This document shows, piece after piece, positions 1,834 to 60,284 of a stretch of DNA of 64,000 bases. Source of the stretch: an uncultured bacterium (GTDB lineage Bacteria; Patescibacteriota; Minisyncoccia; Phycocordibacterales; UBA2100); NCBI GenBank assembly GCA_903824595.1, contig CAIJXH010000004.1:40697-104696 (forward strand), read 5' to 3'. Made by a program: the position numbers and the translations under genes. A model generated the notes under the pieces. That model had not been told where the DNA came from and did no database searches. It saw only the letters and a program-made list of their open reading frames with translations. The first letter of the stretch is position 1. Every line of letters starts with the position of its first letter.

Positions 1834-3066
1834 ATGACAAAAAATACCGGGTGCGTCCTTATTATCGGCGCGGGCGGCGTGGGAAGCGTTGTCGCGCACA
1901 AATGCGCACAAAATAAAGATGTATTCACCAAGATTCACCTCGCAAGTCGCTCGATCGGCAAACCCAACGCAATCAAAAAAGACATCAAGAAACGCTGGGG
2001 CGTTTCCATCACCACGCACATCGTCGACGCCGACAAATCCAAGCAGGTCGCCGCACTCATTCGCAAGATAAAGCCCGCGCTCGTCATCAACGTTGCGCTT
2101 CCCTACCAAGACCTCGCCATCATGGATGCGTGTCTTGCAACTGGCGTGCACTACGTCGACACCGCCAATTACGAACCGCGCGATAAAGCAAAGTTCGAGT
2201 ACAAGTGGCAGTGGGCGTACCAGAACAAATTCAAAAAGAAAGGCATCATGGCAGTCTTGGGAGCCGGATTTGATCCTGGCGTAAGCAACGCGTACTGTGC
2301 ATACGTCTTGAAAAAACACTTTGATACGGTGCGTTTCGTCGACATTCTCGACGCCAATGCCGGCAGCCACGAGAAGGCGTTTGCGACCAATTTCAACCCA
2401 GAGATCAACATTCGCGAAGTTACCCAAACCGTACGCCACTGGGCAAACGGGAAATGGATTGAAACTCCCGCGGTGATGGATAAAGGTAGCGTACATTTTT
2501 CTTTCGACTATCCAATCGCCGGACCAAAAGAAAGTTACCTGCTCTACCATGAGGAGATGGAATCGCTCGTCAAACATCTTCCCGGACTGGAACGCATGCG
2601 TTTCTGGATGACCTTCTCCGAAAATTACCTCAACCACTTGCGCGTCATGGAAAACATTGGTATCTCGAGCATCAAGCCAATCGACTTCCAAGGTAAAAAA
2701 ATAGTGCCGATTGAATTCCTGAAAGCGATCCTCCCCGATCCAGCTTCGCTCGCCACCAAATACACCGGCAAAACGGTAATCGGCTGCATCGTCACTGGAG
2801 TGAAAGACGGAAAAGAGAGCACGAAATACATTTACAACGTCTGCGACCACGAGGAATCATTCAAAGAAGTCGGCTCACAGGCGATCTCCTACACCACCGG
2901 CGTACCCGCGATGTCGGCAGCACTGATGGTGATGAAAGGCATCTGGAGCGGCAAAGGAGTGTTCAACATCGAACAGCTCGATCCCGAACCATTCCTCGAA
3001 ACAGTATCCAAGAACGGACTCCCCTTCACCGTCGTCGATTACACGCCATTGCCGGAGAAGATATAG
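1834..3066 (+). CDS. Carboxynorspermidine/carboxyspermidine dehydrogenase (saccharopine-dehydrogenase-like, NAD(P)-binding).
   Basis: N-terminal Rossmann motif VLIIGAGGVGSVVAHK. ~410 aa, the size of the CANSDH family. Sits between polyamine decarboxylases. Confidence 0.75.
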   Translation: MTKNTGCVLIIGAGGVGSVVAHKCAQNKDVFTKIHLASRSIGKPNAIKKDIKKRWGVSITTHIVDADKSKQVAALIRKIKPALVINVALPYQDLAIMDACLATGVHYVDTANYEPRDKAKFEYKWQWAYQNKFKKKGIMAVLGAGFDPGVSNAYCAYVLKKHFDTVRFVDILDANAGSHEKAFATNFNPEINIREVTQTVRHWANGKWIETPAVMDKGSVHFSFDYPIAGPKESYLLYHEEMESLVKHLPGLERMRFWMTFSENYLNHLRVMENIGISSIKPIDFQGKKIVPIEFLKAILPDPASLATKYTGKTVIGCIVTGVKDGKESTKYIYNVCDHEESFKEVGSQAISYTTGVPAMSAALMVMKGIWSGKGVFNIEQLDPEPFLETVSKNGLPFTVVDYTPLPEKI

Positions 3067-3089: not shown

Positions 3090-3314
3090 ATGGAATTCCG
3101 CCGCTCACTCTTCTGGGACGTTGATCCCTCGACCATCGACGAGGAGAAACATGCGCGCTACATCATCGAGCGCATTCTCGATTTCGGCACCGACAAAGAA
3201 GCCCGGTGGATGTATCAGCGGTATCCGCACACCATCATTCGCGACGTACTGAATCATTCTCGCGTGCTGATTCCAAAGACACGAGCGTTATGGAACGAAC
3301 TAATTCCTCAATGA
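3090..3314 (+). CDS. Small conserved protein (LFWDVDPSTID...YIIERILDFG). Putative cognate antitoxin/partner of the downstream AbiEii-type nucleotidyltransferase.
   Basis: 74-aa ORF whose stop overlaps the next start (ATGA). The motif resembles small partners seen next to DUF1814/AbiEii genes; function inferred from context only. Confidence 0.45.
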   Translation: MEFRRSLFWDVDPSTIDEEKHARYIIERILDFGTDKEARWMYQRYPHTIIRDVLNHSRVLIPKTRALWNELIPQ

Positions 3315-3976
3315 CATTACATCTTGATGCACTGCCGGCAGCCACGCAACGCGCGTTTGAGTTTTTCTCCAACGCAAAGTGGTTAGCCGACGACACATGG
3401 TACCTTGCGGGTGGCACCGCACTCACCCTTCAGGTCGGACACCGTAGTTCTGAAGATCTTGATTTCTTCACGCAACATAAAGAATTTTCACAAACAAGCG
3501 TATTGAATCATCTGTCTGAGCCGGATTGGGTGACGAACGACATGTGGGAAGGAACAATCTACGGCGCATATAAACATGCAAAGGTGAGCTTTATCGCCTA
3601 TCCATTTTTCGTGCCGAAAGCGGAAAAAATAGCTCATGGCGCGCTTTCAATGCTATCCATGCGCGACATCGCCGTCATGAAAATTATTGCGACCAGTCAG
3701 CGCGGACGCAAACGCGATTTCCTCGACCTCTATTGGTATGCAAAAAACGCCGAGCCGCTCCTTGACATCATCCTTCGCCTGCCGGAACAGTATCCGACAG
3801 TCGCACACGACTATCAGCATATTCTCAAAAGCATGCTGTATTTCTCCGACGCCGACAACGACCCGATGCCCACCCTCTTCTTCAAAGCCGACTGGGACGA
3901 AATCAAATCCTTCTTCCGTCGCGAGATTCCTCCGATTGCGAAACGATTGATGGGATTAGAAGAAAACAACATATGA
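3311..3976 (+). CDS. Nucleotidyltransferase AbiEii/AbiGii toxin-family protein (type IV TA toxin-like).
   Basis: Motifs LAGGTALTLQVGHRSSEDLDFF (GGTAL...R.SEDLDF) typical of the DUF1814/AbiEii NTase fold. Start at MTLHL, overlapping the upstream stop; its stop overlaps the nspC start (ATGA). Confidence 0.6.
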   Translation: MTLHLDALPAATQRAFEFFSNAKWLADDTWYLAGGTALTLQVGHRSSEDLDFFTQHKEFSQTSVLNHLSEPDWVTNDMWEGTIYGAYKHAKVSFIAYPFFVPKAEKIAHGALSMLSMRDIAVMKIIATSQRGRKRDFLDLYWYAKNAEPLLDIILRLPEQYPTVAHDYQHILKSMLYFSDADNDPMPTLFFKADWDEIKSFFRREIPPIAKRLMGLEENNI

Positions 3977-8477: not shown

Positions 8478-8806
8478 CGCAAGCGCAATACCACCCCAGT
8501 GGAAATCCTAGGGCGTATCCCCTCACGACATGTTCAATGATCCCGATCGTTGACATCTGTCGTATCCCCTTGCCTAATTCAAACCCCCTTGACCCGCAGG
8601 TGCAGGGGGGGTAGGGTGAACAGGTTGGGAGCGTTTCTGCATCTCGGTACCGTGTGGTGTGCCTCCGTGACAGCGAGGCATAGCGACACAATTTCTGCTT
8701 TCCCCTACGCGCAACCACACAAAAAAGGCTTATCATCGTCGGCACACAACATCCTTCCACGAGCGTGGCATGCTCGCGTGCAAGGAACCATACAGTCGGG
8801 CACGTC

Positions 8807-11470: not shown

Positions 11471-11500
11471 GCGGAGGACACAAACCTCCGCTTTTTCTTT
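11471..11500 (+). terminator. Intrinsic terminator after purA.
   Basis: GCGGAGG-acacaaa-CCTCCGC stem followed by TTTTTCTTT. Confidence 0.6.
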
Positions 11501-11534
11501 ACCATTCCCTCGCCCGATACTGAAGTGCTTCGAG
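11501..11534. repeat. Direct repeat copy A (33/34 nt). Duplicated 3' end of comM (encodes ...LEALQYRAREW*) delimiting an inserted segment.
   Basis: Sequence acCattccctcgcccgatactgaagtgcttcgag is identical (1 mismatch) to 12771..12804, which is the genuine comM 3' end. Confidence 0.8.
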
Positions 11535-11555
11535 CTGCGCCAATTGCATAATATT

Positions 11556-12768: not shown

Positions 12769-14313
12769 TTACAATTCCCTCGCCCGATACTGAAGTGCTT
12801 CGAGCATGTGCGCGGGCTCGATGGTGTCGGACGCGGCGAGATCGGCGACAGTACGCGCGAGTTTGATGGTGCGATGATATCCGCGTGCCGAAAGCTTCAT
12901 GGTGCGCGCCGCCTGCTGGAGTGTTTCTTCTGCCTTCCGCGACAGATTGGCAAGAGATTCGATATGTTTTGCTCTCATGTCGGCGTTGGTGGAAATGCCG
13001 GGAGACGACGCAAAGCGCGCTCGCTGACGCTCGCGCGCGCCTGCAACAGCGGCGCGCGCCGCATGCGTCTCTCCTCCTTTGCCCTTTGCATCCGCTTTGA
13101 GCGACTCGGGTGGCATCTCGCTCACATGTACCCACATGTCTATGCGGTCGGCGACAGGTCCTGAAATCTTGCGGCGATATTTTTCGATCGCATGGGGCAT
13201 GCAGCGGCAACGTGGTGTATGGGCAAATCCGCACGGACACGGATTGAGAGCAGCAATCAACATGAAGCTCGCGGGAAATATCGCGGAGCCCTTGGCGCGT
13301 GAAATGGATACAACGCGATCTTCGAGCGGCTCGCGCAACGCGTTGACCACATCGCGATGAAATTCCGGGAACTCGTCGCAAAAAAGCACTCCTCGATGTG
13401 CGAGCGTCGCTTCGCCCGGACGAATCCCCGACGATCCGCCGCCGATGAGCGACGCATAGGACGACGTGTGATGCGGAGAGCGAAAAGGAGGACGAAAGAT
13501 CGGCGCGCCCGAGAGGTTGCCAGAAAGCGAATGAATAGTCGTCACCTCGATCATTTCATCCTCAACAAGATCGGGAAGAATAGATGCAGCGGCGCGCGCG
13601 AGCAACGTCTTCCCCGTACCGGGCGGTCCGTAGAGCGCAATGTTGTGTCCGCCCGCGGCTGCGATGATCATGCCGCGTTTAGCGCTCCCTTGACCGCGAA
13701 TGTCATCGAAGGCGGTGTCGTCGAGCACACCGCGCACGGATGATTGCTTTGGCGCGTACTCTTCGTGTTCGCCTCCGAGCAACGAGAGCAATTGCTTGAG
13801 TGAAGAAACGGGATGAATACGAATGGTGGAGATGAGCGATGCTTCTTCGTAGTTATCTTCGGGAATGTAGAGATCGGTGAATCCCGCCTCGCGCGCGGCA
13901 CTCGAGATCGAGAGCGCGCCAAGAATTGGGCGCACGGTGCCATCAAGCCCCAACTCTCCTGCAAAAAGCTTGCCCGACGGATCAAACGCAACCTGCTCCG
14001 ACGCGAGCAGAAAAGCCAGCGCGAGCGACACGTCAAACACCGCGCCTTCTTTTTTGAGTGCAGCCGGCGCGAGCGAGAGGACGATTTTTTTATTGCTTCG
14101 TTTGGGCGATTCTAAATCATCGGTGTTCTTTATCGCCGCCGCAATGCGGTCTTTCGCTTCCTCAACCGATTTGTCAGGCAATCCTACGATCGTGAAGGCG
14201 TGCAATCCTTTCACAATATCGCACTCAACCGACACGACCGCCGCCTTGGGAAGCATCGGCTGCGCGCCATACACCCGCGCAAATCCCGACTCTATTTTCT
14301 GCTTCGCGTTCAC
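12769..14313 (-). CDS. comM: Mg-chelatase-like AAA+ ATPase ComM/YifB (competence-associated).
   Basis: N-terminal Lon-like domain, Walker A GPPGTGKT, FCDEFPEF, Cys cluster CPCG...C, C-terminal helix ...LEALQYRAREL. Confidence 0.85.
   Translation of the reverse strand: MNAKQKIESGFARVYGAQPMLPKAAVVSVECDIVKGLHAFTIVGLPDKSVEEAKDRIAAAIKNTDDLESPKRSNKKIVLSLAPAALKKEGAVFDVSLALAFLLASEQVAFDPSGKLFAGELGLDGTVRPILGALSISSAAREAGFTDLYIPEDNYEEASLISTIRIHPVSSLKQLLSLLGGEHEEYAPKQSSVRGVLDDTAFDDIRGQGSAKRGMIIAAAGGHNIALYGPPGTGKTLLARAAASILPDLVEDEMIEVTTIHSLSGNLSGAPIFRPPFRSPHHTSSYASLIGGGSSGIRPGEATLAHRGVLFCDEFPEFHRDVVNALREPLEDRVVSISRAKGSAIFPASFMLIAALNPCPCGFAHTPRCRCMPHAIEKYRRKISGPVADRIDMWVHVSEMPPESLKADAKGKGGETHAARAAVAGARERQRARFASSPGISTNADMRAKHIESLANLSRKAEETLQQAARTMKLSARGYHRTIKLARTVADLAASDTIEPAHMLEALQYRAREL
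12771..12804. repeat. Direct repeat copy B: the genuine 3' end of comM.
   Basis: Matches 11501..11534. Confidence 0.8.
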
Positions 14314-39979: not shown

Positions 39980-40257
39980 CATGATTGACAATGAAAAATC
40001 CCCATGAGGGTACGCGGAGCATACTATCAATCCATATTTCACGCAAGCTTCTCGCCAGACGGATCCTAAAAAGCTAGTGCACGTCGGTTATGCACGTGCG
40101 CGCGTAGGGAGAGCAAAGCTTGTAGTGCTGTCCTGTACTTTCGTAACGATATGCACTCATGTCGGCTGGAGGCAGCGCAACATCGGACATTTGAATATCT
40201 GAAGCAACAATACTCCAATCTGCAGCAAGTTTAGATAATGTCGTCCCAAAAAATCGT

Positions 40258-40276
40258 CCGCAGGTTTAACCTGCGG
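40258..40276. repeat. REP-like palindrome copy 1 (CCGCAGGTTTAACCTGCGG).
   Basis: Exact 19-nt hairpin-forming repeat, 13 nt upstream of the HuH transposase start. Confidence 0.8.
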
Positions 40277-40289
40277 AATTGGTGTTAGA

Positions 40290-40985
40290 ATGGATAGCAT
40301 GTCTACCCGACCACCCATGGCGATTGGCGAATGGTACCACTGCTACACTCGCGGGGTCGACAAGCGAAAAGTATTTGAATCGCAGGAAGATTATGATCGT
40401 TTTCTGGTGCATCTTTACGTCGCCAATGGAACGCGAAATATTCGCGTATCCGATATGCGCGACACGCGACTTAAGAGGGTTTTGGAGGATGAATCGCTCG
40501 ATCGAGGTCATCCGATTGTTGAAATTGGAGCGTACTCGCTCATGCCAACCCATGTTCATTTTCTGTTGCGGGAAATCAGAGACGGCGGTATTGCGCTTTT
40601 CATGCAAAAGACCTTCACCGGGTATACGATGTATTTCAATAACAAGAACGAGCGCACTGGGGCGCTTTTTTCCGGCACGTTCAAATCGAAACACGTAAAC
40701 GAAGATCGGTATCTGAAACAAGTCATTCCCTACATACTCCTCAACCCCGTGGAATTGTTCTATCCCGACTGGAAGAACGGCATCGGCGATATTGATTCCG
40801 TGGAGAAAAAATTGCTCGCGTACCCCTACTCAAGTTTGCAAGAGTTTCAGAGTGTTAGCATCGAACGCCCGCATAAAAAAATCGTGAACGGCTCCTTTGA
40901 AATGTATTACGAGCAACTCCCCACACTCTCACAAATGCTCAGTGACGCGCAAGAGTATTATCGGGAACGCCGTCCGCAGGTTTAA
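40290..40985 (+). mobile_element. IS200/IS605-family HuH (Y1) transposase of the REP-associated (RAYT, TnpA_REP) type.
   Basis: EWYHCYTRG...YSLMPTHVHFLL (HuH motif) and C-terminal Tyr-containing helix. 231 aa. Flanked by identical REP palindromes; its stop codon TAA is the loop of REP copy 2. Confidence 0.75.
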
Positions 40986-40993
40986 CCTGCGGA
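40975..40993. repeat. REP-like palindrome copy 2.
   Basis: Exact repeat; encodes the transposase C-terminus RPQV* (stop lies in the hairpin loop). Confidence 0.8.
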
Positions 40994-41687: not shown

Positions 41688-41706
41688 TTTCCCGCAGGTT
41701 TAACCT
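41688..41706. repeat. REP-like palindrome copy 3.
   Basis: Exact repeat. Confidence 0.8.
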
Positions 41707-41721
41707 GCGGATTTTGTTCAA

Positions 41722-41841
41722 CTTACTACCACTCAATCTCCTTCTGCCCGTGCTCTTTCAGGTACGCATTCGCCTTTGAAAAGGGTTTGGATCCGAAGAA
41801 ACCGGAGTGGGCGGAAAAGGGCGACGGGTGCGGCGATTCGA
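41722..41841 (-). pseudogene. Diverged duplicate of the ung 3' end (fragment encoding ...[39 protein letters not shown]).
   Basis: ~65 nt almost identical (ggtttggatccgaagaaaccggagtgggcggaaaagggcgacgg(g/a)tgcggcgattcgatgacga) to 43362..43425 inside ung, then ~55 nt of diverged but alignable sequence including a stop codon. Confidence 0.65.
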
Positions 41842-41855
41842 TGACGAAAGGAGTG

Positions 41856-43196: not shown

Positions 43197-43252
43197 ACAT
43201 GACTCCCCTGTCGCCGCGCGACGATGAATCCCGCTTTCGTCCGCAGGTCGTC

Positions 43253-43271
43253 CGCAGGTTTAACCTGCGGT
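43253..43271. repeat. REP-like palindrome copy 4 (preceded by a partial tandem half-copy gtccgcaggtc).
   Basis: Exact repeat, 30 nt downstream of the ung stop. Confidence 0.8.
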
Positions 43272-43300: not shown

Positions 43301-43966
43301 CTACCACTCTATGGGCGCTTTCCCGTGTTTGCCGAGGTCGGTATTTGCTCTGGAGAACGGTTTGGATCCGAAGAAACCGGAGTGGGCGGAAAAGGGCGAC
43401 GGATGCGGCGATTCGATGACGAGATGGCGCGCGCGGTCGATGTGCGCGCCTTTGTGCCTCGCGTAGTTGCCCCAGAGGATGAAGACGATATGTTCGCGCT
43501 CTTCGGCAAGTTTTTGTATCGCCGCGTCGGTGAATTGTTCCCAGCCTTTGCCTTGGTGCGAGCAGGCTACGCCGGCTCGCACCGTGAGCGTCGCATTCAG
43601 AAGCAGCACACCCTGCTTCGCCCAGCGCGACAGATCGGTATCGCGACTCACCGGATGCCCGAGGTCGGATGCTAGTTCCTTGAATATATTTTGAAGCGAT
43701 GGTGGCGTCGCTACACCCGAACGCACCGCAAAACACAGCCCGTTCGCCTGTCCTTCTCCATGATACGGATCTTGCCCGAGAATCACCACTTTCACCTCAT
43801 CAAACGGACACTCATCAAATGCACGGAACACCTGCTTGGGCGGCGGAAACACTCGCGCACTCTTGTATTCCTCACGCACGAAACTCGCAAGTGATTGAAA
43901 GTACGACTGTTCGAACTCTGCCGCCAGTCTCTCTCTCCATCCTCCACTTATTTTTACTTCTACCAT
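43301..43966 (-). CDS. ung: Uracil-DNA glycosylase, family 1.
   Basis: GQDPYH (water-activating loop), [11 protein letters not shown] (Leu-intercalation/His motif). Start at [10 protein letters not shown]. Confidence 0.85.
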
Positions 43967-47884: not shown

Positions 47885-49111
47885 TTATTGTACTGTGCAA
47901 AGATGGTTTATTCTGCTTACACTGAACCGAAAAGATTGCAAAAATGTACACCTTGGCAATGAAGCAGGGACAGTTCCATCAATATAGGTAAAAGTACCCT
48001 CAGTCAAACTACCTGTTGTTCCTGATAATGGTTTATAAGAATACGTGTTCGGTTGCTGTTTTGGAACACTCACAGAATCGCCAATGTTCACAACATCTCC
48101 AACAAAATATCTTTGTGTTAAATCTCTCAGACCAGATCCGTTTTGCATTGATTGAACTGTTTGCAATCCCACAATCCCATCTACTGTTAAATTATGTGCT
48201 TGTTGATATTGCCTTACCGCTGCTTCAGTTTTTGGACCAAATACACCATCTGATTTGCCGGTATTATATCCATTAGCTGTCAGAAAATCTTGCAAATTAG
48301 ATACATTTTTACCACGATCCCCAACACTCAACACATCCCCGTTGTTCTGGATATCGTTTAGAGTTTGCCCTATGGCACTTGGAGAAACTGGCTTCGCTGT
48401 TCTGGCAGCTTGTGGTATCGGGGCGAATCCCGCCTTCTTGCACTGCGCATCCACCAAAGCCTGGACTTGTTTGATACACGTCGCACACACAGTATTAATC
48501 TCCCTGAATTCTTCTTTAAAACCATTGCCTTTGTACACACCATTCTCCGATCCATCGGTACACCTACACTCCTCGGCGGTTGAATCTGATAACACGGCGA
48601 CATTTGGCTTGAGCCACAAAAACCACACCGCTCCATATCCTTGTTGCGCTTGCTCTTCGGAAAGGTGGTACTGGGTGCCACATAGATCCATGCTCTCTTT
48701 GCTTATCATGGCCCCTGCTTCATTATTCGACAATGTCAGACGACTTTTTATATTTGTATTCTTGTCAGCCCGATACGCACCTTTCGCATCACGAGATGAG
48801 ACACGAAAACACTCAAGATTCTTTGCTAAGCTAGCTGGCCTATCCTGAAAATCCCTTGAAACAGCAACTACTCTCCCCACCTTGATTCCGACAGACTTTC
48901 CCTCAAAATTCTCCGCAATATGTTCGTGACACCTGAACAAGCTCTGGAGCAGATTCGCATCAACACCCGATGTACTCGCCCCCCCCGCCACCTGACCCGC
49001 ACTCGGCACCGACTGCGAAGAAACGGCGATGGTGAAGAAAAGCGCGGCGGCAATGATACCAGCGGGGAGCGTGGGAAGGATGGTGGTTTTATATCGCACG
49101 GTGTTACTCAT
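47885..49111 (-). CDS. Secreted protein with C-terminal peptidoglycan-binding (PG_binding_1-like) domain.
   Basis: LQDFLTANGYNTGKSDGVFGPKTEAAVRQYQQAHNLTVDGIVGLQT matches the PGRP/PG-binding_1 repeat consensus. Confidence 0.5.
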   Translation of the reverse strand: MSNTVRYKTTILPTLPAGIIAAALFFTIAVSSQSVPSAGQVAGGASTSGVDANLLQSLFRCHEHIAENFEGKSVGIKVGRVVAVSRDFQDRPASLAKNLECFRVSSRDAKGAYRADKNTNIKSRLTLSNNEAGAMISKESMDLCGTQYHLSEEQAQQGYGAVWFLWLKPNVAVLSDSTAEECRCTDGSENGVYKGNGFKEEFREINTVCATCIKQVQALVDAQCKKAGFAPIPQAARTAKPVSPSAIGQTLNDIQNNGDVLSVGDRGKNVSNLQDFLTANGYNTGKSDGVFGPKTEAAVRQYQQAHNLTVDGIVGLQTVQSMQNGSGLRDLTQRYFVGDVVNIGDSVSVPKQQPNTYSYKPLSGTTGSLTEGTFTYIDGTVPASLPRCTFLQSFRFSVSRINHLCTVQ

Positions 49112-49166
49112 GCCGTATATACTATCATTGTTGCGCTCGCGCTACCACCCCCATGTGTATTACGAA

Positions 49167-49286
49167 GTGCCTATCCCCTCACGACATGTTCGACGAGGTC
49201 TTTGCAGCGCGACGGCGCGAAACAGAGGGATTTTTCAGCAGAAAAATCCCGACCTCGGAGAATCGTGTCGTGAGGGGATAGGCACC
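49167..49286. mobile_element. MITE-like palindromic element copy 1 (120 bp; 21-bp terminal inverted repeats GTGCCTATCCCCTCACGACA; flanked by TATTACGAa / TATTACGAc).
   Basis: Near-perfect long hairpin with nested stems. A second near-identical copy at 52489..52608 has a different flanking duplication. Confidence 0.7.
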
Positions 49287-49307
49287 TATTACGACACGCG
49301 TATCCCA

Positions 49308-51272
49308 TTACGACGTGGGAGCAGTATCAGCGCGCGCCACTTTTGCCGCTGACGCAATGTTCCCACTGTCGGGAACAGCAGAAAGACGTGAGTGTGGAGG
49401 TTGTATGCGCGAAGAAGAAATCGGAGCGGAAGAGGTCTCTACAGCTGCTGCGTTCGTTTCTTGCGTCGCTTCCATTTCTTGTTTTGCTTTTTTGATTGCG
49501 AGAATCTGCGACGGATCGGAGGTTATGATCTGATCTTCGGTGTACGATGCGACCACCTTGATCGCGACATGCTTCAATCCCGCAAAGAAAATCCCCTCTC
49601 CCACATCACTTTCGAGCAGAAGGTACTTCTCTTCATCGGAAAGCTTGAAGGTGCTCTGTACAAGATCCACCGAAGTCGGCGACTGACGCAACAGCATCTG
49701 GATTGAGGAGTTGGTAATCATCGGGACGCCGTACGGAGAATTGAGGAAGTCGGAGACGTCTTGCGTGATCGTGGAGACGCCGAGGAAATATTTGCGTCCG
49801 CGCTTGATGATGCCGAAAAGGAATGAGGCGGTATCTTGGCTTCTCATCATCCACCATGCCTCGTCGATGATGAGGAGGCGTTTGCGTAGCTCTTTTCTCA
49901 CCGTGTTCCAAATATGATGCGTGATGATGTACATGGCGACCGGCTTGAGATCGTCTTCCATGTCGCGCACCGAGAAGACGACGAGCTTTTTGTTCATGTC
50001 GACATTGGTCGGACGATTCATAAAGCCAGACCACGTGCCTTTTGTATATTTCGAGAGGCGCGCAACGAGCGAGTCACTCCCCTCCATACCCGACAGCACG
50101 AGTTCGAAATCGGAGAGAAGAGGCGGTTCGACTGCGGCAAAATTAGAATCCGGGGTTATGTCTTTGAGCGCGTAGGTCTCGGTGATGGCTTTATCGATCA
50201 CGGCATCTTCTTCTGGAGTGAGTCCGCCGAGCATGATGCGGAAAAGTCCCACAAGCGTGATAATGTTGTTGCGCAACACATCGGACGGAGCTTCGTCTTC
50301 GCGCGGGATCGGAAGATCGAAAGGATTGATATGGTGTTCGGACGAAAGCGAAATATTGAAGTAACGTCCGCCCACCGTCTCGGCGAGATACTCATACTCA
50401 CGCTCTGGGTCGATGACGATCACCTCCACGTCAAACATGAGCGAGCGCAAAATCTCGAGCTTGGTCATGTATGACTTCCCTGCGCCCGATTTCGCAAAGG
50501 TGACGGAGTTGTAGTTTTCGAGCGAGAAACGATCGAACAGGATGAGTGAAGAATTGTGACGATTGATGCCGTAGAGAATGCCGCGATCCGAGGTGAGGTC
50601 AAAAGATATGAAAGGAAAGATCGACGACAATGGCGCTGAATTTAGTTTTGTATGCACGTCAAGCTCATCAGTACCAAGCGGCAACGTGGAACGAAATCCC
50701 TGCTCCTGCTGAAACAGCGCCGGACGTATATACACAAGCCGCGACTCCAAAACCGATCGCACATCACTTTCTATTTTGTCGAGCTCGTCTCGCGTTGCCG
50801 CGTAAATCGTGATGTACAAACCAACATCAAAGATACGTTCCTGTGCTTGCTGTAAACTATCGCGAAGCTGTTCAATATCCGCATACGCCGTGTCGAGCAT
50901 CGGATCACGCACCATGCCCGATTCTTCACGCGTGGAAATCTGACTTTGCACCTCCGCCACCTTTTTCTGGAATTTGCGCAACATTTCATTGGTATCCATG
51001 GGGTGAATGAACACTGAAATATCTATCACCTTGTCCATGTTGATGATCGGCGCAAACCATCCTGTCGTGAGAAAACGCGGATACGAGATGACAAAAAATG
51101 TACGAGCTATTTTTTCGCCAAGATCAAGCTCGCGCGAATGTATCTTGAGCGCATGCGGCGCAATAACATCTTGTAAATCCAAAATACCCGTGCGATAAAT
51201 CTCCTCGGGCAATATAGGCAATATCTTCGCCGTATCCTGCTTCTTTGTGACAAATAAATCAAGAAATGACAT
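49308..51272 (-). CDS. VirB4/TrbE/CagE-like type IV secretion ATPase (ATPase domain; N-terminal domain encoded by the separate upstream ORF).
   Basis: Walker A FAKSGAGKSYMTK, Walker B VIVIDPEREYEY..., C-terminal motifs of the VirB4 family. Confidence 0.7.
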   Translation of the reverse strand: MSFLDLFVTKKQDTAKILPILPEEIYRTGILDLQDVIAPHALKIHSRELDLGEKIARTFFVISYPRFLTTGWFAPIINMDKVIDISVFIHPMDTNEMLRKFQKKVAEVQSQISTREESGMVRDPMLDTAYADIEQLRDSLQQAQERIFDVGLYITIYAATRDELDKIESDVRSVLESRLVYIRPALFQQEQGFRSTLPLGTDELDVHTKLNSAPLSSIFPFISFDLTSDRGILYGINRHNSSLILFDRFSLENYNSVTFAKSGAGKSYMTKLEILRSLMFDVEVIVIDPEREYEYLAETVGGRYFNISLSSEHHINPFDLPIPREDEAPSDVLRNNIITLVGLFRIMLGGLTPEEDAVIDKAITETYALKDITPDSNFAAVEPPLLSDFELVLSGMEGSDSLVARLSKYTKGTWSGFMNRPTNVDMNKKLVVFSVRDMEDDLKPVAMYIITHHIWNTVRKELRKRLLIIDEAWWMMRSQDTASFLFGIIKRGRKYFLGVSTITQDVSDFLNSPYGVPMITNSSIQMLLRQSPTSVDLVQSTFKLSDEEKYLLLESDVGEGIFFAGLKHVAIKVVASYTEDQIITSDPSQILAIKKAKQEMEATQETNAAAVETSSAPISSSRIQPPHSRLSAVPDSGNIASAAKVARADTAPTS

Positions 51273-51289
51273 ACGGTAATGATAACGTA

Positions 51290-51934
51290 TTACGCTTCAA
51301 GCGGCATCGGTTTTCCTTCTTCTCCAGGATTGAACATTTTGTAGAGGAGCTCGATCGTCTCTTCAGTCCCCAAACGCACCGTGCGCACTCCCGTGCGTAT
51401 CAGCCCCTGTTGCACAACACTGATTCGCTGCTCAAGCTGAGAAAGCTGTTCTTCGAACGATCGATTTGCAGCCTCTGTGCTGCTTTCTTTTTTGAACGAG
51501 AAAAACGACGCCGCTTCCGCGACAGTCGTCGCGCCGCCCGCATAAGGAATGACGACAAAGAAATTCTTGGTCATGATACTTGCTGCTTCAGTGAAGTTTT
51601 TTATGAACTCGATGTATTCGCGGATTTGAATGCGCATGAGGTCGTTGAGCTGTGCTTTGTATGCTTCCTCCAGCGTGGCAACATACGGACGGATGTCGAG
51701 CATGCGCGATTGCACAAAAATTTGTATGGTGAAATCGAGCGCATTGAGACAATTTTGAAACTGCACGATGAACGCCGTCTGCTCGTCTTCAGACTTGAGT
51801 GCGAAGTTGATCGACGACGCAAGAAGAATGGCGCGGAGACTCCCGTCTTTCAAAACGATGATCCCATCACGGACTTCACGCACAGGGACGAAATCTTGAG
51901 TCGATTTGCTTGCGTTTGTGGTGGAATGCGGCAT
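51290..51934 (-). CDS. VirB4 N-terminal-domain-like protein (split from the ATPase domain by a 17-nt gap and a frame change).
   Basis: DFVPVREVRDGIIVLKDGSLRAILLASSINFALKSEDE matches the conserved N-terminal CagE/TrbE/VirB4 segment. Confidence 0.5.
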   Translation of the reverse strand: MPHSTTNASKSTQDFVPVREVRDGIIVLKDGSLRAILLASSINFALKSEDEQTAFIVQFQNCLNALDFTIQIFVQSRMLDIRPYVATLEEAYKAQLNDLMRIQIREYIEFIKNFTEAASIMTKNFFVVIPYAGGATTVAEAASFFSFKKESSTEAANRSFEEQLSQLEQRISVVQQGLIRTGVRTVRLGTEETIELLYKMFNPGEEGKPMPLEA

Positions 51935-51946
51935 AGGTATATACGA

Positions 51947-52435
51947 TTATACACGCATCGTCCGCGATGCTGGCAATGGCACGCCATCCATGCCGCGCTC
52001 CTCGTCTCGCGCAATACCCCCCGCGACTCGCTCCTTGATATCGAGTGACCACGCCAAATCACGAAGCTTGCTTTCAGACAGTTTGGGCACATACGTTTCC
52101 GTCGTAACGATCCCCGCTTTTTTCTGCTCCCCCACGCCATCTTTCCACTTCATGCGACGCTGATTGCTCCAGAGGTAGAATTTTGTTCGCATAAGGTACC
52201 GCAAACCATTTTCGAGCGCGTCGATAAACGGGCGATCGTTGTATGTGATAAACGCAAGCGCAAGCGCGAAAGCTGCGAGTATAATCATGCACGGGATCGC
52301 GATCAAAGACGGGAGCAACCTCCACACCAGGTACGACGCCCCCGCCCCTCCCACCACAAACACAAACTGCTTGAACGTAAGAGGACCAAAAATCTTGTCC
52401 TCGACTTCAATAAACTGCGGAACCTGAAACTGCAT
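51947..52435 (-). CDS. VirB3/PrgI-like small membrane protein (putative).
   Basis: MQFQVPQFIEVEDKIFGPLTFKQFVFVVGGAGASYLVW: N-terminal motif plus two TM helices, as in VirB3-like proteins preceding VirB4. Confidence 0.4.
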   Translation of the reverse strand: MQFQVPQFIEVEDKIFGPLTFKQFVFVVGGAGASYLVWRLLPSLIAIPCMIILAAFALALAFITYNDRPFIDALENGLRYLMRTKFYLWSNQRRMKWKDGVGEQKKAGIVTTETYVPKLSESKLRDLAWSLDIKERVAGGIARDEERGMDGVPLPASRTMRV

Positions 52436-52488
52436 ATTGCCAGTATACCAAGCGTATCGACGTGCTCATGACCTGTTTGTGCGTATCA

Positions 52489-52608
52489 GTGCCTATACCC
52501 TCACGACATGTTCGACGAGGTCTTTGCAGCGCGACGGCGCGAAACAGAGGGATTTTTCAGCAGAAAAATCCCGACCTCGGAGAATCGTGTCGTGAGGGTA
52601 TAGGCACC
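52489..52608. mobile_element. MITE-like palindromic element copy 2 (flanked by a perfect 9-bp duplication TGCGTATCA). An adjacent partial third copy lies at ~52623..52666.
   Basis: Identical to copy 1 except one compensatory pair of substitutions in the terminal stem (C->A on the left arm, G->T on the right arm). Confidence 0.7.
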
Positions 52609-52671
52609 TGCGTATCACCATCACACGACGCGTTCGACGAGGTCTTTGCAGTGCGACGACGCACAGGTTAT

Positions 52672-53202
52672 TCACGCCGCTTCTCGATACGGGTCGTCGG
52701 CGACCGAGGCACGCGACACACTCGTCTCTCCCGGTCGATACCCATCGTTGACTATCGGCACACGCATGACACGCATGGCGTGAGGCGCGGGAGGGGGTGT
52801 CGCGGGCACAGGAGGAGCTGGCGCGACCACCGACTCACGCGACGAAACGGGCGCGCTCGGCAATGGTGCCGCCTCTTTCTTTTCAAGCTCATGTTCAAGC
52901 GCTACGCGAATCGGCTCGAACACAACGCGTGAAATATCTCGCACAAGCGCGGTTGCCACATCGGCAGGAACGCCCACTTCCTTTTCCACGTTTGCCGCGA
53001 GAGCATCTACCGACTGAATGCCCAGCATCGCGAGCATCACCTCGTTCTCGAGTTGCTCCCATTGATCAATATGAAGTTTGTATAGAGTGGAAAGCTCGCG
53101 CAAATGATGCTCGACATCGGCAGACACAATCGCCTCTTGCACAATGCGTGGCAACGTGGAGAAACGCTCTTGCAATTGTTGTTGAATATCCGACGTGGTC
53201 AT
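52672..53202 (-). CDS. Hypothetical helical protein with Pro/Ala-rich tail (T4SS cluster).
   Basis: 176-aa ORF. Confidence 0.35.
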   Translation of the reverse strand: MTTSDIQQQLQERFSTLPRIVQEAIVSADVEHHLRELSTLYKLHIDQWEQLENEVMLAMLGIQSVDALAANVEKEVGVPADVATALVRDISRVVFEPIRVALEHELEKKEAAPLPSAPVSSRESVVAPAPPVPATPPPAPHAMRVMRVPIVNDGYRPGETSVSRASVADDPYREAA

Positions 53203-59243: not shown

Positions 59244-60039
59244 TAGAGGTGGTGAATCGTTTCCAATCAAGAATGGTGAGACGTTCAGCGCGTATGCACG
59301 GATCTATATTTACGCTACCACACGCGCGATGCACAATCTCCTTATCATAGAGGTGCGTCATATTACTTCCAAACATCTTCCGTTTTGCCGCAAATCCCGC
59401 GTGCACGATTTTGAAAAAATCACGCTCGGTGATGTCTGAAAAGAAATCGCGTGTAATGTCTTCGATGAGCAAAATCGCGGAATCCACCGATGGCGGTGGG
59501 GAGAAATTGCCGCGCCCGACTTTTGCGACAATCTTCGGCACACCATACACCTTTACCGAAAGTGACAGCATGCTTTCTTTCTTATCGCGCGCAATAATGC
59601 GTTCCGCGACTTCTTTCTGAACAAGCAGCGCCATCGCACGTGGCTGCATTTCCGCGGTGAGAAATTGTTTGATGATTTCGCCGGTAATGTAGTACGGAAT
59701 ATTCGCCGCAACAACATATGCTCCCGACGGCGTGAAATCGCGCACGTCACCTATCACAATAGTGAGCTTCCCCGCCACAACGTCTGACGCAAACGTTGTA
59801 TGTAGTTCTTCCGCAAGCGCCTCGTCTTTTTCTATCGCGATGACGCGCGCGCCCGTCGCGAGCAGTTTTTGTGTGAGAGCGCCCTTGCCAGGACCGATCT
59901 CGACGATCGTCTCCCCCTCGCGTACCGCCACCGACTTCGCAAGCACGTCCGCATAGTGCGTGTTCGTCAAAAAATGCTGCCCCAGCCGCGCACCCCGCTT
60001 TTTCACGGTTGCTTTATGACTTTGGTAAAGTCTGACCAT
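59197..60039 (-). CDS. rsmA: 16S rRNA (adenine1518/1519-N6)-dimethyltransferase.
   Basis: LGQHFL, IVEIGPGKGALT, AANIPYYIT motifs of KsgA/RsmA. Confidence 0.85.
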   Translation of the reverse strand: MVRLYQSHKATVKKRGARLGQHFLTNTHYADVLAKSVAVREGETIVEIGPGKGALTQKLLATGARVIAIEKDEALAEELHTTFASDVVAGKLTIVIGDVRDFTPSGAYVVAANIPYYITGEIIKQFLTAEMQPRAMALLVQKEVAERIIARDKKESMLSLSVKVYGVPKIVAKVGRGNFSPPPSVDSAILLIEDITRDFFSDITERDFFKIVHAGFAAKRKMFGSNMTHLYDKEIVHRACGSVNIDPCIRAERLTILDWKRFTTSITCLCRPSSSQCQPT

Positions 60040-60284
60040 TGTTCAATACGGAACGCGCGAATATCGCGCACGGAGAGCGTAAACCATGGCAGAGCTTTGA
60101 GCGCGATGATCGCCTGAAACAAATTCGCCATGTCTTCGCTCTTTGTTACATACACACTGCCCTGTATCCTCTCAAAATCAAAATGCTCAAGTGTCGCGGC
60201 GATGTCCGTGTATGCCTGCGTGACGTTCTTGGGATGATGCTTGCTCGCATCGGCGACGACAAGATCGAACGTAATGGCGAACAT
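60003..60284 (-). CDS. vapD: VapD-family endoribonuclease (Cas2-like fold).
   Basis: MFAITFDL...IQGSVYV...WF..SVRDIRAFRI...DFT parallels H. influenzae VapD (MYAIAFDL...TQGSVYV...WFKKSVRDIRAFKV..DFT). Confidence 0.75.
   Translation of the reverse strand: MFAITFDLVVADASKHHPKNVTQAYTDIAATLEHFDFERIQGSVYVTKSEDMANLFQAIIALKALPWFTLSVRDIRAFRIEQWSDFTKVIKQP

Follow-up and report, generated by a model that had tools for sequence, protein, structure and literature searches.

Background

The Correia elements of Neisseria (CREE/NEMIS), ERIC/IRU and RUP are miniature inverted-repeat transposable elements (MITEs) of approximately 100–150 bp that have terminal inverted repeats (TIRs) and no open reading frame (ORF). 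Those of the Correia type sit in intergenic gaps within operons, and their transcripts fold into long hairpins, which can be processed or alter expression. Here we describe an element that resembles them in size, terminal repeats, lack of an ORF and intergenic position, and whose transcript would likewise fold into a long hairpin that may be processed or alter expression. It is 120 bp long and occurs twice in a 64,000-nucleotide stretch (the window) of contig CAIJXH010000004.1, from the uncultured patescibacterial assembly GCA_903824595.1, within a minus-strand operon that resembles a type IV secretion system (T4SS). Correia and ERIC elements duplicate TA, whereas this element duplicates 8–9 bp. 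Correia-type ends are conserved and the interior carries features such as an IHF site; in our element it is the interior junction that is conserved, while the ends vary and mismatches are strand-biased. The host also belongs to a different phylum.

Three other systems invite comparison. Members of the IS1595 family usually make 8-bp target duplications, and their Merlin relatives 8–9 bp (PMC8101967). The duplications described here are compatible in size with that family (ISSod11 group), but no IS1595-type transposase gene was found among the ORFs scanned in the window or near any member of the element family. Repetitive extragenic palindromes (REPs) and REPINs share with our element the form of intergenic hairpins of about 100 nt and a constraint on one strand, and the window contains a gene resembling a REP-associated tyrosine transposase (RAYT). 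Unlike our element, REPINs make no target duplication. Their building block is the REP flanking the RAYT gene, and the hairpin of the window's RAYT-like gene differs from the element. Finally, the three-way-junction RNAs in Rfam (hammerhead, twister-sister, purine-type aptamers) have a closing stem with two hairpins, conserved junction nucleotides and G.A pairs, as the element does. The element differs from them in having no CUGAUGA/GAAA hammerhead core, in its 25–32 bp closing stem and in its mobility.

A search of the accessible literature on MITEs and structured RNAs of Patescibacteria and on three-way-junction MITEs found nothing relevant. The MITE as such is a known type of element; an internal, covarying, strand-biased three-way junction with freely varying ends is new, and the core is possibly a new structured RNA motif.

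The Two Copies Fold into a Three-Way Junction

The first-pass annotation of this DNA, made without database searches, had placed the same 120-bp sequence at 49167..49286 and 52489..52608. Our self-comparison of the window returned these as 122-nt direct repeats with 98% identity (49166–49287 and 52488–52609). The copies and their parts are as follows.

49167..49286, plus strand: element copy 1 (120 bp), in the gap that separates the VirB4 stop (49308) from the PG_binding gene start (49111)
52489..52608, plus strand: element copy 2 (120 bp), with the stop of the 176-aa gene (52672) on one side and the PrgI start (52435) on the other
49167..49198, plus strand: copy 1 outer-stem 5' arm (left TIR), holding the tandem G.A internal loop
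49199..49206, plus strand: copy 1 junction strand J1, TCTTTGCA; pairing between the 3' half of J1 and J2 lengthens H1
49207..49218, plus strand: copy 1 hairpin H1, GCGC-GACG-GCGC (GCGCGACGGCGC), from the predicted fold
49219..49226, plus strand: copy 1 junction strand J2, GAAACAGA; its GAAA pairs to J1, including a conserved G.A
49227..49250, plus strand: copy 1 hairpin H2, GGGATTTTT-CAGCAG-AAAAATCCC, from the predicted fold, with loop CAGCAG
49251..49252, plus strand: copy 1 junction strand J3, GA
49253..49286, plus strand: copy 1 outer-stem 3' arm (right TIR), after J3
52529..52540, plus strand: copy 2 hairpin H1
52549..52572, plus strand: copy 2 hairpin H2

As RNA, the element has a predicted folding energy of -84 kcal/mol, compared with -37 ± 3.9 kcal/mol for shuffled sequences (z = -12). 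The minimum free energy and centroid structures alike are a three-way junction of a closing stem, H1 and H2. The closing stem has about 30 pairs (49167–49198 with 49253–49285 in copy 1). Five pairs out from the junction, at 49192–49193, it is interrupted by an internal loop of tandem G.A/G.A. The element had been described as a nearly perfect long palindrome, a description that missed the hairpin GCGCGACGGCGC at 49207–49218 and that we replace with the three-way junction. Its TIRs, GTGCCTATCCCCTCACGACA and TGTCGTGAGGGGATAGGCAC, are perfect over 20 bp, and the inverted repeat continues inward.

The sole differences between the copies are C49175/G49277 in copy 1 and A52497/T52599 in copy 2. In the fold, these two variable sites are the partners of a single outer-stem base pair, so the compensatory substitution proposed earlier is borne out. 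By hand arithmetic, the chance that a second random substitution would hit the partner and restore pairing is approximately 1/119 × 1/3 = 0.3%. We also looked for spurious ORFs across other copies; a concatenated six-frame peptide query of the 120-bp element yielded no homologue.

The two copies are not an assembly artefact, because contigs from other samples (L001, L002, L212 and L213 in our collection of loci and contigs) are 99.99–100% identical. Short contigs from four assemblies stop inside or just beyond the elements, which is typical of a repeat. No strain lacking either insertion was present among the near-identical contigs (99.99–100%) that extend the window.

Each Insertion Has Its Own Duplication

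49158..49166, no strand: copy 1 left target-site duplication, TATTACGAA, whose first 8 nt match the right partner exactly
49287..49295, no strand: copy 1 right target-site duplication, TATTACGAC
52480..52488, no strand: copy 2 left target-site duplication, TGCGTATCA
52609..52617, no strand: copy 2 right target-site duplication, TGCGTATCA, also the first 9 nt of an older relic
52610..52666, plus strand: relic of an older family member, consisting of left arm, J1 and degenerate H1 only, 90% over 39 nt
49296..49315, plus strand: end-like relic ACGCGTATCCCATTACGACG beside copy 1, overlapping the VirB4 stop codon
8510..8540, plus strand: solo terminal-repeat-like sequence AGGGCGTATCCCCTCACGACATGTTCAATGA (AGGGCGTATCCCCTCACGACATGTTC), matching the right end of the L109 element

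The direct repeat bounding each copy had been interpreted as a target-site duplication, and the evidence agrees: both are 8–9 bp long and they differ in sequence. At least 8 of 9 matching positions abutting the element would be expected by chance at a rate of about 1e-4 per copy. All duplications become exact 8-mers when the start of the element is set at AGTGCC, and we therefore give their length as 8–9 bp. An unrelated metagenome contig, L109, has a perfect 9-bp duplication, CAATAAAGC, around its element. There are consequently three independent insertions with three differing duplications: TATTACGA(A/C) and TGCGTATCA in the window and CAATAAAGC in L109.

The partial third copy previously noticed next to copy 2 (52623..52666) corresponds to the relic at 52610–52666. 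This relic opens with the right duplication of copy 2, so copy 2 inserted into the end (first 9 nt) of an older copy. In total, the 64-kb window holds two full copies and two or three relics. Another contig (L138) has two members, and contigs break within the element.

The last 35–50 aa of VirB4 and the last approximately 75 aa of the 176-aa protein cannot be aligned to relatives, and each variable end (49308–49470 and 52672–52900, respectively) abuts an element relic. At window positions 8510–8580, the solo end-like sequence, GGGCGTATCCCCTCACGACATGTTC, is followed by TTGACA-N17-CCTAAT with a spacer containing GTCGTATCCCCTTGC; a similar sequence, TATCCCCTTGC, also occurs beside the element in L019.

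The Element Is Absent from the Same Gaps in Relatives

A search with the VirB4 protein gave us 80 loci of 20 kb for comparison, all of them from metagenome-assembled genomes of Patescibacteria (Kaiserbacteria, Paceibacterota, Parcubacteria and some 'Saccharibacteria'). The gene order p788-p176-PrgI-TraC-like-VirB4-p350 is kept across approximately 80 relatives, and in the relatives sharing that order neither the p176-PrgI gap nor the gap downstream of VirB4 contains the element. A family member was found in only 6 of the 80 loci.

The copies had been said to bracket a split virB4 gene. Their intergenic placement in the T4SS-like operon stands; the split does not, since the TraC-like and VirB4 gene pair is kept in about 80 relatives and is therefore the normal arrangement. 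The minus-strand cluster encodes PrgI, the TraC-like protein, the VirB4/TraG-P-loop ATPase, a T4SS pilin and a PG_binding protein. The gene for the last of these (408 aa; 47885–49111), located between VirB4 and p350 and adjoining copy 1, is present only in the window lineage. The window itself is chromosomal. It encodes PNPase, PolA, ClpP, S12, adenylosuccinate synthetase, RuvA, a Mur ligase and three tRNAs, with NusG, L11 and tRNA synthetases on a contig that extends it.

A Dispersed Family in Paceibacteria and Metagenomes

We obtained the first other members (L006, L017, L019, L040) as partial matches when the element was searched against the 80 VirB4 loci. They have H1, the junction strands and the H2 loop in common with the window element. 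Their outer stems are wholly different, and their H2 stems are different yet complementary. We then scanned metagenomes with the pattern GCGCGACGGCGC-N6-11-GGG-N4-10-CAGCAG, which matched at least 120 contigs. Most of those matches were chance occurrences in GC-rich coding DNA and were dropped after folding and model scoring. Among the matches listed, the real members were L097, L100, L109, L111, L113, L115, L138, L140, L158, L175 and L201. A covariance model built from eight of these recovered all of them and added L188 and a second, divergent copy in L138. L010 was found with a second covariance model and L021 was recognised by eye. The family now has approximately 20 members, with L006, L010, L017, L019, L021 and L040 coming from genomes and the remainder from metagenomes.

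The nearest relatives of the window element are in L109, L140 and L175, whose ends (...TATCCCCTGACGACATATTT...) are close to those in the window. L010 and L021 have other H1 and H2 sequences in the same architecture, with loops GUCG and AGCA/ACCA; GNCG and (C)AGCA(G) are thus the more fitting consensus forms. The L019 member (2320–2515, minus strand) has a 50-nt insert exactly in the H2 loop, itself made of two small hairpins; the H2 loop therefore tolerates cargo.

In L006, L010, L017 and L021, the spacer between rpmH and dnaA carries a member directly upstream of DnaA-box-like TTATCCACA repeats, and the L040 copy is one gene away from that spacer. L006 and L010 are approximately 90% identical in their flanks and identical in their junction strands, whereas their distal stems and H2 are unrelated. 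The close relatives L004, L007, L013, L016, L018 and L024 have no such hairpin at rpmH-dnaA. Outside this group, the flanks of family members are mutually unrelated, and no gene is recurrently found beside them; the neighbours are housekeeping genes.

Unrelated stable hairpins lie beside DnaA boxes in the rpmH-dnaA spacers of L009, L015 and L023, approximately 100–400 nt upstream of dnaA. These have perfect stems of 25–32 bp and energies down to -80 kcal/mol. The spacer looks like a hotspot for hairpin insertions. A second conserved and apparently structured motif, ...GAGGYGGGGCYGCGACCGAG-[CCGCGYGACGRCGCGG]-CGAGAGTTGT..., preceded by a covarying hairpin, occurs on the minus strand of L004 (~1880–1990), L007 (~1040–1150) and L010 (~1260–1380). 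It also contains the GCGC-GACG-GCGC hairpin of the element and has no Rfam match.

Covariation and Selection on One Strand

The alignment used for covariation was guided by the model and contained 19 members, 18 of them distinct. Paired cells made up 91.4% of the total, compared with 70.0 ± 1.2% in shuffles, and none of 500 shuffles reached that value. Both sides had changed in 24 of the 31 pairs (shuffled mean 16.3 ± 1.8). The covariation score was 0.636, falling to 0.08–0.11 when the partners were slid by 1–3 columns. Among the pairs outside the outer stem, the extension of H1 by J1 and J2 stands out: pair 18-41 is UA in 8 members, CG in 7, AU in 2 and GC in 1, with no member unpaired; pair 19-40 is UA in 12 and CG in 6; and at pair 20-39, 17 of 18 members keep a G.A. 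The structural constraint that had been suggested from one compensatory pair thus extends to the whole family.

The fold is also strand-specific. The core strand (GCGCGACGGCGC...CAGCAG) folds better than its complement in all 17 members tested, by 0.9–17 kcal/mol. Inverted repeats that decay by transitions as double-stranded DNA should accumulate G.T and A.C mismatches equally. Across the family, the arm mismatches were G.T 21, A.C 3 and G.A 23. This 7:1 bias of G.T over A.C, together with the recurrent tandem G.A loops, indicates that one single strand is selected to fold, as RNA or as single-stranded DNA (ssDNA).

The orientation of that strand relative to genes varies. It is plus in both window copies, antisense to the T4SS operon, and it is likewise antisense between co-directional genes in L019, L100, L138 and L158. 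It is sense in L140, L040 and L115, and sense to dnaA in L006 and L017.

Search for Known Motifs and a Transposase

At the gathering thresholds of Rfam 15, only tRNAs were detected in the window and nothing in six related loci; the best match on the element itself was a snoRNA at E = 1.4. We rejected a hammerhead-like core, which would require CUGAUGA and had no Rfam score, and an integron attC site, since the element lacks outer R/L boxes and its conservation lies in the interior. The 8–9 bp duplications, and the fact that the RAYT-like gene has another hairpin, led us to reject an IS200/IS605 palindrome-associated transposable element (PATE) or REPIN.

No DDE transposase was found among the scanned window ORFs of at least 150 aa, nor near any family member. 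The ends that we anticipate for a cognate autonomous element are GG(T/G)GC(C/G)TATCCCCT(C/G)ACGACAT. The ends of the 120-bp element itself, GGTGCCTATC and GGGCGTATC, fit nnnGcnTATC, which we take to be the motif of the ISSod11 group of IS1595.

The statement that no cognate transposase is visible in the window holds for DDE enzymes among the scanned ORFs. It needs one qualification: the window contains a transposase gene of another class, which has hairpins of its own and would not make duplications.

40290–40985: gene for a 231-aa Y1 (IS200-like/RAYT-like) transposase, assigned from profile matches

The 231-aa protein matched Pfam Y1_Tnp at E = 5e-5, just above the cutoff, and the NCBIfam REP-associated tyrosine transposase model with 26.5 bits, below the cutoff. 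Its gene is bracketed (40257–40993) by the palindrome TCCGCAGGTTTAACCTGCGGA (CCGCAGGTTTAACCTGCGG), which occurs four times in 3 kb (further copies at 41692–41711 and 43251–43270), nowhere else in the window, and not in the 120-bp element. The gene and palindrome look like a RAYT/REP-like pair of their own in a Patescibacteria chromosome. A 122-nt direct repeat of 80% identity (41726–41847 and 43301–43422) lies approximately 15–30 nt past a REP-like hairpin each time. Hairpin and approximately 150 nt of following sequence may therefore form a single repeated unit.

Interpretation

We consider it likely that the element belongs to a MITE family of Paceibacteria-type Patescibacteria that makes 8–9 bp duplications and is moved in trans by a DDE transposase, and that its interior is a strand-specific three-way junction, probably an RNA module. 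The classification as a non-autonomous transposon follows from the copies' own 8–9 bp duplications, the third insertion in L109 and the absence from approximately 80 relatives. The comparisons demonstrate recent insertion, varied duplications, TIRs, no coding capacity, dispersal to unrelated loci and absence in relatives; they equally demonstrate that the interior is a conserved three-way junction with covarying stems and wobble-biased mismatches on one strand. The original proposal of a mobile MITE with TIRs and variable duplications is retained in those respects. In one respect the family is the reverse of a classical MITE, with a variable TIR and outer stem around a conserved interior.

Mechanistically, a DDE-type transposase encoded elsewhere would cut at the terminal repeats and integrate via a staggered 8–9 bp cut. 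This enzyme may be IS1595-like, judging from the end motif GcnTATC and the duplication size. The long closing stem and core would additionally be selected to fold in single-stranded form, most likely as RNA from the GCGCGACGGCGC...CAGCAG strand, and the folded core may be the family's conserved structured module, binding some factor. Both window copies are antisense to the T4SS operon, so its mRNA would contain only the reverse complement, a weaker hairpin (predicted at -78 kcal/mol). That hairpin would likely be a long double-stranded processing or pausing site between genes and not a dedicated T4SS regulator; a processing or pausing effect on the operon mRNA is plausible.

Several observations weigh against this interpretation. 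The exact terminal-repeat pattern GTGCCTATNCCCTCACGACA had 0 matches in the viral, genome and metagenome collections, and no autonomous element with matching ends was found in the three collections scanned. A clear duplication is present in only 3 of approximately 20 copies, with none recognisable in most older members. No base-exact empty site was seen because even the closest relatives are only about 76–80% identical in VirB4 DNA. The outer stems, which are the presumed transposase binding sites, change wholly from one species to the next around a conserved interior. Such a pattern is unusual among MITEs and would call for a large number of co-evolved transposases or for some other mode of recognition. 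As for the interior, covariation of the outer stem is equally expected from inverted repeats at the DNA level, and the alignment was fitted to the model. Because the metagenome search pattern prescribed H1, GGG and CAGCAG, ascertainment accounts for part of their invariance; the pattern did not specify the junction strands, the extension of H1 or the stem of H2. Lastly, the favoured strand in the window is antisense to all neighbouring genes.

A related and less probable possibility, which we hold at minority weight, is that the three-way junction is a functional RNA, ribozyme-like or protein-binding, that rides on a DNA transposon or is required for it. The GNCG and AGCA loops, the conserved G.A pairs and the junction purines would then be its features.

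We think it improbable that the element is a vertically inherited structured noncoding RNA, or an origin-region DNA structure of Paceibacteria, whose window copies arose by local duplication. Conservation of the junction and loops alongside covarying stems would suit such an origin, as would the shared position of four members beside DnaA boxes in the rpmH-dnaA spacer and the common flanks and junction strands of L006 and L010 around differing stems. Vertical descent does not account for window copies that have unrelated flanks and their own duplications, for the third duplication in L109, or for members at many unrelated loci in both orientations. Nor does it fit the absence from rpmH-dnaA in six close relatives and the presence in only 6 of 80 loci.

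Slightly less probable again is the idea that the element behaves like a REPIN and is mobilised as ssDNA by the HUH/Y1 (RAYT-like) enzyme encoded at 40290–40985, which would recognise the folded core strand. The wobble bias on one strand would suit recognition as ssDNA, the Y1_Tnp/RAYT-like gene is only 8 kb away, and REPINs are similar in size and intergenic location. On the other hand, this gene is flanked by a different hairpin, TCCGCAGGTTTAACCTGCGGA, and IS200/IS605 and RAYT chemistry gives no duplication, whereas three copies have 8–9 bp ones. By GC skew, the core strand in the window also appears not to be on the lagging-strand template.

It is very improbable that the element is an ordinary terminator or mRNA-processing hairpin lying between T4SS genes and repeated by chance. 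In favour of this, the minus-strand H2' followed by TCTGTTTC passes a loose terminator scan, and A- and T-runs flank the intergenic L040 and L100 copies. Against it, the same gaps lack the element in approximately 80 relatives whose operon is the same, the copies are 98% identical across 120 bp and have duplications, neither strand of the window copies shows a U-tract after the full hairpin, and termination needs no conserved three-way core.

Other Features of the Window

The remaining observations concern other parts of the window. A 37-nt direct repeat with 97% identity (11499–11535 and 12769–12805) flanks a DUF4143/AAA_14 ATPase gene. A 93-aa gene at 60003–60284 (minus strand) has a weak Cas2 Pfam match in the existing annotation of L001. 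At 3206–3976 (plus strand), polyamine genes surround an AbiEii toxin gene that has a DUF6922 partner.

Significance

Patescibacteria (the candidate phyla radiation, CPR) have tiny genomes. Recent movement of a MITE into a conserved T4SS-like operon means that transposition is active in these lineages. The element is a marker for strain variation, and it explains the recurrent assembly breaks at these positions. Its repeated presence beside the DnaA boxes of the rpmH-dnaA spacer deserves attention.

We regard the conserved, covarying and strand-specific three-way junction as a candidate for a new RNA or ssDNA structural motif, found only in the Paceibacteria-type group and not in Rfam. If the mobilising machinery recognises the folded core and not the ends, this would be an unusual mode of transposon recognition, and the free variation of the ends would be explained. 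If the junction proves to be a functional RNA, the family would be a bacterial counterpart of mobile elements derived from noncoding RNA.

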